Source: Zoogloea sp.
GTDB taxonomy: Bacteria > Pseudomonadota > Gammaproteobacteria > Burkholderiales > Rhodocyclaceae
DNA: 64,000 nt
Assembly: GCF_028689785.1 (NCBI RefSeq)
Contig: NZ_JAQVCN010000025.1
Span: forward strand, 319-64,318
Reading direction: 5' to 3'
The notes beneath the pieces were generated by a model, which saw nothing but the letters and a program-made list of their open reading frames with translations, had not been told where the DNA came from and did not search any database. Below are positions 31,210-34,447 of the stretch, piece after piece. Each line of letters starts with the position of its first letter. Position 1 is the first letter of the stretch. A program made the position numbers and the translations under genes.

Positions 31210-31255
31210 ATCTGTAAAATGGATTGTATTGATATATGTATTCCATTTTACAGAT
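31210..31255. promoter_or_regulatory. Perfect 14-bp inverted repeat in the fpr/finR intergenic region (candidate operator)
   Basis: ATCTGTAAAATGGA-N18-TCCATTTTACAGAT, ending at the base before the LysR ATG. Confidence 0.6.
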
Positions 31256-32182
31256 ATGAAATACACCCTGCGCCAGCTTGAGATCTTTCTCGCCGTGGCC
31301 CGCCACGAAAGCGTGTCACGGGCTGCGGAAGAGCTGTCCCTGTCCCAGTCTGCGACGAGCACGGCCCTGGGCGAACTGGAGCGGCAGTTCGACACCCAGC
31401 TTTTCGACCGTATCGGCAAGGCCCTGCGCCTCAATGAGCTGGGGCAGGTGGTACAGCCCCACGCGGTGCAGCTCATCGAGCATGCTCAGGAGATCGAAGG
31501 CATGCTGGCCCGGCAGACCGACTTTGGCCCCCTGCAGATCGGCGCCACCCTGACCGTGGGCAATTACCTGGCCACGCTGATTGCTGCCGATTTCCTGCGT
31601 GACCACCCAAGCGCCCGGGTGAGGCTGACTGTCCACAATTCGGCCACCATCGTCCAGCAGCTGATCCGCTATGAGCTTGATCTGGGGCTGATCGAGGGGA
31701 GCTGCCGTCATCCCGACCTGCTCGTCGAGCCCTGGGTGGAGGACGAACTGGTGGTGTTCTGTGCGCCCGGGCATGTCATGGCCCATGGCCGCCCGGTGGA
31801 CACGGATGAACTGGCTGGGCAAGACTGGATTTTGCGGGAGATCGGCTCGGGTACCCGTGAGACCTTCGATCAGGCGCTACGGCATTTCTCCGGGGAGGTG
31901 AAGGTGCGCCTGGAGCTTGAGCATACCGAGGCCATCAAGCGCGCTGTGGAGAGCGGCCTGGGCATTGGCTGCATATCGAGGCTTGCCCTGCGCGACGCCT
32001 TTCGCCGGGGCAGCCTGGTGCCCATCGATACGCCGCAACTCGACCTGCGTCGTCAGTTCCAGTTTGTGACCCACCGGCGCAAGTACGTGACCGCCGGCAT
32101 GCGGGAGTTCATCGCCCTGTGCCGGAAGATGACCGCGGGAGTGACGCGCAGCGACCTGATCGACTTGCCCTACGTTCCCTGA
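31256..32182 (+). CDS. finR: LysR-family regulator divergent from fpr (FinR-like)
   Basis: MKYTLRQLEIF HTH; IGATLTVGNYL, LELEHTEAIKRAVESGLGIGCIS; divergent fpr arrangement as in Pseudomonas finR-fpr. Confidence 0.85.
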   Translation: MKYTLRQLEIFLAVARHESVSRAAEELSLSQSATSTALGELERQFDTQLFDRIGKALRLNELGQVVQPHAVQLIEHAQEIEGMLARQTDFGPLQIGATLTVGNYLATLIAADFLRDHPSARVRLTVHNSATIVQQLIRYELDLGLIEGSCRHPDLLVEPWVEDELVVFCAPGHVMAHGRPVDTDELAGQDWILREIGSGTRETFDQALRHFSGEVKVRLELEHTEAIKRAVESGLGIGCISRLALRDAFRRGSLVPIDTPQLDLRRQFQFVTHRRKYVTAGMREFIALCRKMTAGVTRSDLIDLPYVP

Positions 32183-32195
32183 GTCCTCCAACCCT

Positions 32196-32580
32196 TGTGG
32201 GAAAGTCTCCGGGAATTCACACAGAGCGTGGGCAAGCCTGTGGACAAGATGTGGGGGGCGCTGTCATCTACCGGACACATAAGGGAATTTTGTTGCTGCC
32301 TAAAAATAGGGCAATTCTGTTGATTCAGTGGCTTGAATAGTTTTTATCTATTCACAAAAATCCGGGGATAAGTTGTGAATAAGCTGTGCGGCGGTGCAGC
32401 ATTGCATTGATATTAAAGAAAAAAGACGCTCTGCCACAAAATGGGGCAGGGCTTGTCCAGTGTGGTGCGGGGGCAAATTGTCCCCATGGGGCGTGGGCAA
32501 GGGTGTGGACAAACTGTGGGGTTGGGCGGCAAGGCCTTCACCCGTAAGGCTTTTGTTTGGCTGCCTAAAAAATAGGCAGC
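32196..32580. promoter_or_regulatory. DnaA-box cluster (three modules) with Fis- and IHF-like sites
   Basis: TGTGAATAA (32374), TGTGGACAA (32239, 32504), CTATTCACA (32348), TTGTCCCCA (32478) and weaker boxes; GCCTAAAAAATAGGC (32563) and GCCTAAAAATAGGGC (32298). Confidence 0.7.
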
Positions 32581-32662
32581 GGGGTGGCGGCATCTTCCGG
32601 GGCGGGGCGTCTGGCCTTTGCTAGAATCCGGGCCACTCCTGCTTTTCCGGCTTGTACCTCCT

Positions 32663-34447
32663 ATGACCTCTCCCGTCCGCTACACCATCCAGGCCGTCCA
32701 TCCCGCCGCGCATCTGTTTGAAGTCAGCCTGCAGCTCGACGCCCCGGATCCGGCCGGGCAGGTGTTCACCCTGCCAGCCTGGATTCCCGGCAGTTACATG
32801 ATCCGGGAGTTCGCCAGGAACATCGTCAGCCTGTCGGCCAGGGCTGGCCGGCAGGAGCTGGAGGTCACGCGACCCGACAAGCACACCTGGCAACTGCCGG
32901 CGGGCATCCAGGGCCCCGTGAGCCTGCGCTACACCGTATATGCCTGGGATCTGTCGGTGCGCACGGCCCACCTCGATCAGACCCACGGCTTCTTCAACGG
33001 CACCAGCGTCTTCCTGTGTGCCCGCGGCCATGAGGGGCGGGCACACCTGGTGGACATCCGCCCCCCGGTGGGCATGGAGGACGCGGGCTGGCGGGTGGCC
33101 ACCAGCCTGCCCGAGGCCGAGGGCGAGAAGGGCGCAGCCGAGCGTTACGGCTTCGGCCTGTACCGGGCGCCGGACTACGATGCCCTGATCGATCACCCGG
33201 TGGAAATGGGGCGCTTCAGTCTGGCCGAGTTTGATGCCTGCGGGGTGCCCCATGCGGTGGCCATCACCGGCCGCCATGACTGCGACCTGGGGCGCCTGGT
33301 GGAAGACCTCAAGCCCATCTGTGAGGCGCAGATCCGCCTGTTCGGCGAACCGGCGCCGATGGACCGCTACGTGTTCCTGGTCATGGCGGTGGGGGACGGC
33401 TATGGCGGGCTGGAGCACCGGGCTTCCACCGCCCTGTTATGCAGCCGCGCCGATCTGCCTTACGTGGGTATGGACGCGCCGGGCGAAGGCTATCGTCAGT
33501 TTCTGGGCCTGTGCAGTCACGAGTACTTTCACACCTGGAATGTCAAGCGCATCAAGCCGGCAGCCTTCGTGCCCTACGACCTGTCCCGGGAGAACTACAC
33601 CCGCCTGCTGTGGGCCTTCGAAGGCTTCACCTCGTACTACGATGATCTGATGCTGGTGCGCAGCGGGCGTATCAGCGTGGCCGATTACCTGGGGCTGCTG
33701 GGCAAGACCATCACCCAGGTGCACAAGGGCAGTGGCCGCCGCAAGCAGAGTGTGGCCGAGTCGTCCTTCGGGGCGTGGACCAAGTATTACCGTCAGGACG
33801 AGAACAGCCCCAATGCCATCGTCAGCTATTACACCAAGGGTTCCCTGGTGGCCTTGCTCCTCGATCTGCGCCTGCGCGTGGAAAGCGGGGGTGCTCGCAG
33901 TCTCGATGATCTCATGCGGGCCCTGTGGCAGCGCCATGGCCAGACCGGGGTGGGGGTGGCCGAGGATGGCCTGTTTACGTTGGTAGCGGAGCTGGGCGGT
34001 GAGGAAACGGGCCGCTGGCTGCAGGCCCTGGTGGAGGGTACCGATGAACTGCCCCTGGAGGCCTGGCTGAAGCGGGTGGACGTAGGCCTGGCCTGGGAAG
34101 CCGCGGCAGCGGCGCCCGGCCTGGGCGCACGTACCGCGGCCGAGGGTGATGCGCTGCGCCTGGCCAATGTCTTCGATGGCGGTGCCGCCCAGGCGGCGGG
34201 CCTGTCGGCGGGGGATGTGCTGGTGGCCCTGGATGGCTTGAAGGTGAGCGCGGGCAATCTGGACAAGCTGCTGGCCCGCCGCCTGCCGGGTGAGGTGGTG
34301 GAGATCCACGCCTTCCGCCGGGACGAACTGATGCGTTTCGAGCTGAGCCTGCAGGAGGCGCCCCGGGATACGGCCAGGCTGAGCCTGGTGGAGGAGGGTG
34401 GCAGCCCGGCGCACCAGGCGCTCAGGGAGGCCTGGCTGGGGCGTTGA
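32663..34447 (+). CDS. M61 family glycyl aminopeptidase with C-terminal PDZ domain
   Basis: LPAWIPGSYMIREF, GGLEHRAS, CSHEYFHTWNVKRIKP, WAFEGFTSYYD, SYYTKG; PDZ AQAAGLSAGD. Confidence 0.93.
   Translation: MTSPVRYTIQAVHPAAHLFEVSLQLDAPDPAGQVFTLPAWIPGSYMIREFARNIVSLSARAGRQELEVTRPDKHTWQLPAGIQGPVSLRYTVYAWDLSVRTAHLDQTHGFFNGTSVFLCARGHEGRAHLVDIRPPVGMEDAGWRVATSLPEAEGEKGAAERYGFGLYRAPDYDALIDHPVEMGRFSLAEFDACGVPHAVAITGRHDCDLGRLVEDLKPICEAQIRLFGEPAPMDRYVFLVMAVGDGYGGLEHRASTALLCSRADLPYVGMDAPGEGYRQFLGLCSHEYFHTWNVKRIKPAAFVPYDLSRENYTRLLWAFEGFTSYYDDLMLVRSGRISVADYLGLLGKTITQVHKGSGRRKQSVAESSFGAWTKYYRQDENSPNAIVSYYTKGSLVALLLDLRLRVESGGARSLDDLMRALWQRHGQTGVGVAEDGLFTLVAELGGEETGRWLQALVEGTDELPLEAWLKRVDVGLAWEAAAAAPGLGARTAAEGDALRLANVFDGGAAQAAGLSAGDVLVALDGLKVSAGNLDKLLARRLPGEVVEIHAFRRDELMRFELSLQEAPRDTARLSLVEEGGSPAHQALREAWLGR

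Follow-up and report, generated by a model that had tools for sequence, protein, structure and literature searches.

Chromosomal sites that act on DnaA

To our knowledge, the control of the DnaA ATP/ADP cycle by chromosomal sites (DARS1, DARS2 and datA) has been worked out experimentally only in Escherichia coli. In the MG1655 genome the DARS1 core, written as boxes I, II and III with the spacers in base pairs, is TTATCCACT-5-TGTGGATAA-3-TGTGTATTA, and the DARS2 core is TTATTCACC-5-TGTGGATAG-3-TGTGAAGAA. DARS1 has a 5-bp spacer between boxes I and II, is described by a head-to-head model and carries a degenerate, dispensable box III' (PMC6868365). A head-to-head pair of DnaA molecules that releases ADP is thought to sit on boxes I and II, and box III aids oligomerisation (PMC6868365). 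DARS2 needs sites for IHF and Fis at optimised distances, and its dispensable boxes IV–VI form a second core-like triplet (PMC4245941). Of 52 E. coli box pairs with a similar arrangement, no more than two were confirmed as DARS (PMC5835720), so the geometry is necessary but not sufficient.

For DARS2, the published sequence conservation consulted here covers only gamma-proteobacteria, namely eight species in addition to E. coli (PMC4245941 supplement). PMC6868365 credits Fujimitsu 2009 with the prediction of candidate DARS in a variety of species, and a literature search for DARS together with beta-proteobacteria returned nothing.

The third site, datA, promotes ATP hydrolysis and consists of boxes 2, 3 and 7, with box 4 stimulatory, around one essential IHF site (PMC10950094). 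Tandem double boxes 2–3 bp apart are a general DnaA-binding unit that is also found at datA and in promoters (PMC11317965).

Setting of the array

The window, the whole stretch of 64,000 nucleotides of Zoogloea sp. DNA analysed here, corresponds to bases 319–64318 of one contig (C28) of a 5.08-Mb assembly in 128 contigs. Within it, a threefold array of DnaA boxes occupies a gap of 480 bp that separates a LysR gene from an M61 peptidase gene, both on the plus strand:

31229 to 32182, plus strand: LysR-family regulator, YeiE-like (NCBIfam PRK10837, above its cut-off); the upstream flank, a neighbour that an earlier note on this DNA had named finR
32663 to 34447, plus strand: M61 peptidase with a PDZ-like tail (Pfam PF17899 and PF05299), ATG at 32663; the downstream flank

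The closest named relatives of the M61 protein come from Zoogloea MAGs (81–93% identity), which places the DNA in Zoogloea or a genus very close to it. The alignment also shows a genus-conserved TAGAAT at 32622-32627, ~100 bp downstream of unit 3 and ~36 bp upstream of the M61 ATG, which is likely the -10 element of an M61 promoter lying downstream of the array.

Anatomy of the three units

The earlier note had described three modules with a common DnaA-box layout, and re-reading the sequence placed all three exactly where it had put them. The plan of each module is a forward box I, 5–6 bp, and then three tandem reverse boxes 2–3 bp apart. Units 1 and 3 also have linkers with recognisable features:

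32213 to 32258, plus strand: core of unit 1, boxes I to III', with a degenerate box III' at 32250-32258 (genome-wide scan; box conservation)
32259 to 32297, plus strand: linker of unit 1, with the conserved islands CTGTCAT, CGGACAC and AAGG-TTTT (alignment; information-content profile)
32348 to 32393, plus strand: core of unit 2, boxes I to III', with box III' at 32385-32393; its box I to box III distance is 26 bp, equal to that of units 1 and 3
32478 to 32523, plus strand: core of unit 3, boxes I to III', with box III' at 32515-32523; an 87% direct repeat of unit 1, 265 bp apart
32529 to 32556, plus strand: linker of unit 3, a short hairpin-like GCCTT...AAGGC followed by a T run, and a AAGGCTTTT element (alignment)

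In module 1, box I (32213-32221, GAATTCACA) is followed after 5 bp by box II (32227-32235, CGTGGGCAA), after a further 3 bp by box III (32239-32247, TGTGGACAA) and, 2 bp later, by TGTGGGG from 32250. Module 2 differs in its spacers, with box I (32348-32356, CTATTCACA), 6 bp, box II (32363-32371, CGGGGATAA), 2 bp, box III (32374-32382, TGTGAATAA), and again 2 bp before TGTGCGG from 32385. Module 3 has box I at 32478-32486 (TTGTCCCCA), 5 bp, box II at 32492-32500, 3 bp, box III at 32504-32512, 2 bp, and TGTGGGG from 32515. With this TGTG a fourth box begins in each module, reverse and degenerate (III'), so that a module has its three reverse boxes in an 11–12 bp register.

The boxes are of unequal strength. 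Box III matches the high-GC DnaA consensus exactly, reading TTGTCCACA on the minus strand (TTATTCACA in module 2), and the box III types of the array recur in the best origin candidate of the genome. Box II is the weakest box; it reads CGTGGGCAA or CGGGGATAA and carries 2–3 mismatches to TT[A/G]TCCACA in all species.

The AAGGCTTTT element of the unit 3 linker is common to other units of this kind. The hairpin and T run beside it drew no terminator call and no convincing RNA structure. Short hairpins with a T run follow both unit 1 and unit 3, and Alifold energies lie below those of column-shuffled controls, as they might if the gap held a small RNA gene or a repeated RNA element. However, the predicted pairs are merely the head-to-head boxes and the dyads, the energies amount to just -5 to -12 kcal/mol per ~115 nt, and Rfam returned noise only (mir-1788, E = 0.3). 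A consensus scan gave no promoter-like site, and its two terminator-like calls correspond to the dyad and a weak stem. We regard an RNA gene or element here as highly improbable.

Accessory sites

The two 15-bp G-N13-C sites that had been described as Fis-type, at 32298-32312 and 32563-32577, are both real. A third, degenerate site at 32433-32447 was absent from the earlier list. Each of these three A-tract dyads begins exactly 85 bp beyond the first base of its unit's box I. They are given here with the one IHF-like site, the dyads having no strand assigned:

32298 to 32312: dyad 1, a G-N13-C A-tract (GCCTAAAAATAGGGC) in which CTAAAAATAG is invariant in the genus; one mismatch to the Fis consensus
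32433 to 32447: dyad 2, a degenerate G-N13-C (GCCACAAAATGGGGC), 85 bp from box I of unit 2
32561 to 32581: dyad 3, a perfect 21-bp palindrome whose core (32563-32577, GCCTAAAAAATAGGC) fits the Fis consensus at all specified positions
32400 to 32412, minus strand: IHF-like 13-mer TATCAATGCAATG, one mismatch to WATCAANNNNTTR, with only the TGAT core conserved

The Fis consensus used was GnnYAnnnnnTRnnC (PMC4245941 supplement), and the common form of the dyad, GC[A/C][C/T]AAAAAT[G/T]AGGC, matches it at five to six of the six specified positions. We estimate that a match to this consensus arises by chance ~0.5 times per 480 bp, so the case for the dyads rests on their conservation and their fixed offset. 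The dyad stands at +85 in the five-unit array of a congener (see below) and in other genera including Aromatoleum as well. For the IHF-like 13-mer the earlier proposal holds in part: the site is present, but it is one mismatch off WATCAANNNNTTR and poorly conserved, with the full IHF consensus at the homologous position in four of 18 relatives. The genome encodes a 79-aa Fis-family protein, whose gene adjoins dusB, as well as IHF-alpha, IHF-beta and two HU proteins.

Conservation in the genus

The array region is present in all 24 congeneric genomes sampled. In 19 congeneric species the boxes, the dyads and the module spacing are kept, and the spacers vary. The alignment of these 19 species, with identity down to ~70%, has no indels from unit 1 to the last dyad (~365 bp), and the distances from one box III to the next are 135 and 130 bp in all 19 (129 in two). 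Information content over 14 non-redundant species is 1.6–1.9 bits per position in the boxes, 1.25 in the spacers within modules and 1.16 in the remainder of the gap. Each module keeps its own type of box I across species, which indicates that the triplication is old, vertically inherited and predates the genus.

No conserved open reading frame crosses the gap among the aligned relatives. The four gap-crossing frames (53–81 aa) that might have suggested a coding region are broken by stops or frameshifts in most relatives. A mobile repeat was also considered and rejected; units 1, 2 and 3 are each orthologous across species, and each exact dyad string has a single occurrence in the genome.

In two congeners the LysR and M61 genes are only ~90 bp apart with no array between them, and some congeners have the array at other loci, so the array is not tied to one gene. 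In three congeners an insertion of ~880 bp separates the array from the M61 start. The number of units among congeners ranges from one to five. The five-unit case (congener G019, contig C5; L028:1340-2070) has a period of ~155–160 bp, each unit comprising core and dyad, and has neither LysR nor M61 within 1.3 kb.

These contexts bear on the possibility that the array serves DnaA-dependent transcriptional control of its flanking genes, chiefly the M61 peptidase, and plays no part in the DnaA nucleotide cycle. Such units do occur upstream of the M61 homologue in Zoogloea, Aromatoleum and further genera of the family, other units of this genome lie in promoter-side gaps (of an rluA-like gene, priA and exbB; see below), and DARS1 and DARS2 of E. 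coli overlap promoters too. The congeners with a short gap or a long insertion argue against it, as does the lack of modules upstream of M61 relatives in Thauera, Paraburkholderia, Cupriavidus and others. Units 1 and 2 are also 250–400 bp upstream of the -10-like TAGAAT, and triplication at invariant spacing would be unusual for a simple operator. Control of the neighbouring genes as the sole function seems to us rather improbable.

Position relative to the origin

The earlier note had left room for a displaced origin, which the surrounding sequence does not bear out. There is no GC-skew switch at 32.4 kb; the skew stays positive on both sides of the array, between ~24 and ~52 kb of the window, and the locus lacks a strong AT-rich region for unwinding. 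As the earlier note had observed, dnaA, gidA and parAB are not near the array; contig C42 carries dnaA, C57 carries gidA and parB, and the window has none of them.

A better oriC candidate is found on C42 (42,800-43,490). It has five boxes with at most one mismatch, four of them within 500 bp, together with AT-rich repeats, lies at the GC-skew minimum of its contig and is the top box cluster genome-wide. The lowest GC over 80 bp is 23.7% there versus 32.5% at the array, and only 19 loci in the genome reach 25% or less. Two of these are in the window, at ~47,209 and ~52,435 (C28:47,527 and 52,753). The skew of the window is negative past ~52 kb and at 18–24 kb, possibly a mark of islands or of a switch in gene orientation. 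The C42 candidate is beside earP, ~37 kb from dnaA, and adjoins neither dnaA nor gidA.

Ranked by density of boxes with at most one mismatch, the array comes second among the clusters of the genome, and the stretch between units 1 and 2 is moderately AT-rich, as might be expected of a displaced or second oriC or of the origin of an integrated element. Against this stand the lack of a skew switch, a higher GC minimum than at the C42 candidate, the absence of replication or partition genes nearby, and the occurrence of the same unit singly or in two to five copies at other loci. We judge an origin at this position to be very improbable. In a congener assembled in ten contigs the oriC candidate and the array are on different contigs, and in complete genomes of other genera units of this subtype are at widely differing distances from dnaA, taking the gene and not the origin as reference.

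Related sites in this genome

An a-priori scan of the whole genome (5.08 Mb) for the layout box I-5/6-box II-2/3-box III (TTNTNCACA, at most four mismatches in 21 specified positions) gave eight matches, versus 0, 0 and 1 in three Markov-3 simulated genomes. The modules of the window account for three of the eight. A fourth match, at C56:8,860-8,915 on the minus strand, is a single unit of the window subtype with a 5-bp spacer between boxes I and II. It has a CHASE8 hybrid sensor kinase gene on one side and the gene of an RluA-type pseudouridine synthase on the other, and its degenerate dyad overlaps the stop codon of the kinase gene.

Two further sites have a canonical DARS-type core, TTGTCCACA-5-TGTGGATAA-3-TGTGGGAAA and a close copy. 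One is upstream of priA (C38:140,420-140,466, minus strand) and is near-perfect with one mismatch; the other, also near-perfect, is upstream of an exbB/tolQ-like gene (C5:154,705-154,750, minus strand). The two have ~70 bp of similar flank, a dyad at ~+86 and an AAAA(T)CAA motif in common. These sites could already cover the role that a DARS-type reading would give to the array.

Their presence is one of the points in favour of the main rival to that reading, in which the array is a datA-like or purely titrating sink. Its 12 phased boxes would assemble ATP-DnaA oligomers that are inactivated by ATP hydrolysis or sequestered, restraining initiation. The three tandem boxes of each unit stand in an 11–12 bp register as for head-to-tail ATP-DnaA oligomers at oriC and datA, and a bending-protein site beside the boxes parallels the IHF site of datA (PMC10950094). 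However, an opposed box I conserved at a fixed 5 bp is a hallmark of DARS and is not among the described features of datA, the IHF consensus is not conserved in the array, and twelve boxes make a small sink. Although it is the main competitor, we think a sink of this kind unlikely.

Distribution in the family and the order

The pattern of boxes II-III-III' that defines the window subtype was found in 14 of the 151 sampled genomes of the family, representing eight of 89 genera; the reversed pattern, used as a control on the same sample, had zero matches. The subtype often forms arrays of two to three units spaced 134–318 bp apart. The opposed box I is kept at its fixed 5-bp distance in every unit and genus.

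Cores of the canonical DARS type are widespread in the order as a whole. The pattern TYCAC-N6-TGTGGATAR-N3-TGTG has an exact match in 155 of 251 genomes, and its reversed control has 0 matches in the same 251. With at most one mismatch allowed, this pattern finds DARS1 and DARS2 only in E. coli MG1655. Across the order the canonical units have a TTGCC-N7-GGCAA-type dyad at ~+86 plus a AAGGCTTTT-like element, and often a AAAATCAA (IHF-like) motif further downstream. They have a perfect box II (TGTGGATAA) and are single-copy, whereas the window subtype has a weak box II and a strong box III, occurs in tandem arrays and is more narrowly distributed. The comparable dyad at +86 makes the two kinds of unit look homologous, and those of the window appear to be a paralogous, diverged subtype of an element that is widespread in Betaproteobacteria.

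The weak box II deserves separate consideration, as it departs from the DnaA consensus alike in all units and genera (CGTGGGCA-). This could be the preference of another protein, for example a regulator of TGTGG-type repeats; a purely structural or nucleoid-organising repeat belongs to the same class of explanation. However, box III corresponds exactly to the high-GC DnaA consensus TTGTCCACA, a box found in the oriC candidate too, the full layout reproduces DARS box for box, and the architecture is common to canonical units whose boxes are perfect TTATCCACA. A role that bypasses DnaA is accordingly given little weight here and appears quite improbable.

The DnaA protein

The dnaA gene (L001:799-2508, contig C42) has a longest open reading frame with a ~90-aa N-terminal extension that is probably not translated. 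The base-contact residues of domain IV (R399, P423, D433, H434, T435 and H439) are identical to those of E. coli, so equal box specificity is expected. Of the residues compared elsewhere in the protein, Leu290, Phe239 and Lys243 are kept, and the residue aligned to Gln208 is Ala. In E. coli, Gln208 is needed for the release of ADP that depends on DARS, and Q208A is defective (PMC6868365). The presence of Ala at a position needed in E. coli makes this locus a natural experiment on the head-to-head DnaA interface.

Proposed mechanism

We consider it quite likely that the array is a selected, non-coding, non-origin locus at which DnaA binds and a nucleoprotein complex forms, and it is probably a site that controls the timing of replication. 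The more specific reading that we favour, though only tentatively and at somewhat less than even confidence, is that of a DARS-type DnaA-reactivating locus, present in triplicate, that helps to set the timing of initiation. The earlier note had already pointed towards DARS. At the level of sequence that proposal is supported by the orientation and spacing, which match DARS1 and DARS2, by boxes footprinted through their conservation, by dyads at a fixed 85 bp and by the encoded Fis and IHF; it fits less well with the weak box II and with Ala in place of Gln208.

From the sequence we infer that DnaA binds to the array, that a protein binds the dyad and that nucleotides are exchanged there. Under the DARS-type reading three nucleoprotein units of ~100 bp, inherited vertically, would make up a non-coding array in the gap. 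In each four-box core a head-to-tail trimer of DnaA would occupy boxes II, III and III', and a fourth DnaA on box I would face this trimer head-to-head across the 5-bp spacer (6-bp in unit 2). E. coli removes ADP from spent DnaA with this same geometry, at DARS1 and DARS2. The A-tract dyad 85 bp downstream would be the binding site of a second protein, most likely a Fis-family member or some other nucleoid protein that bends DNA, and this protein may shape the complex, as IHF and Fis do at DARS2.

A broader proposal is that Zoogloea and related Rhodocyclaceae have a multi-copy, cis-acting switch of the DnaA nucleotide state. The tandem units would act in one higher-order complex, with the 135/130-bp spacing kept genus-wide, and ADP-DnaA would be reactivated through a head-to-head contact that does without Gln208. 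On balance we think this unlikely in its full form. If true, it would extend DARS-type control to the Betaproteobacteria, with a different interface chemistry and a dosage-tunable design of one to five units. If the array is active at all, the number of units among congeners (one to five) could be an evolutionary dial for initiation timing.

Comparison with known systems

The DnaA-regulon double boxes of E. coli (PMC11317965) resemble the array in their tandem spacing of 2–3 bp, which is that of boxes II and III and of boxes III and III'. As tabulated, those sites are box pairs and have no opposed box at 5 bp, no accessory dyad and no repetition of a whole unit. Like the array, datA is a non-origin cluster of DnaA boxes with a bending-protein site, and it controls the nucleotide state of DnaA. 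It differs, in a comparison made by description, in having no repeated unit, and a 5-bp head-to-head pair is not among its described features.

DARS sites have boxes I and II head-to-head at 5 bp, and this spacing is found in units 1 and 3 and in the single C56 unit, with 6 bp in unit 2. Box III is tandem to box II at 2–3 bp as in DARS (2 bp in unit 2 and 3 bp in the other two). Where DARS has box II as the high-affinity nucleating box, with 0–1 mismatch, the consensus box of the array is box III. One of the DnaA residues compared also departs from the DARS model, position 208 being Ala.

DARS1, in the 101-bp bioD-uvrB spacer, has the same I-5-II-3-III order plus a degenerate box III' as each unit of the array. 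In contrast to the array, its box II is a perfect consensus and nucleates assembly, it needs no protein cofactor, and it is present in single copy.

The closest likeness is to DARS2, in the rppH/ygdT-mutH spacer (Fujimitsu 2009; Kasho 2014, PMC4245941). Both loci are intergenic and not origins, both have one box opposed to two tandem boxes with spacers of 5 and 3 bp, and both have accessory sites for bending proteins at fixed distances, putatively so in the array; in DARS2 this spacing matters. The natural DARS2 locus, like the array, has more than one core-like triplet, the additional one being boxes IV–VI. The array differs in having three full units versus one essential core, in having its strong box at position III and not II, in its extra phased box III', and in its A-tract dyads, one per unit at +85, with no IHF site seen to be conserved. 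Its host has a DnaA without Gln208, there is no detectable sequence homology beyond the boxes, and the activity of the array is a prediction. What it adds to the known systems is a DARS-type core under strong selection in a betaproteobacterial genus, accompanied by a second putative protein site at a rigid distance and repeated three times at invariant spacing.
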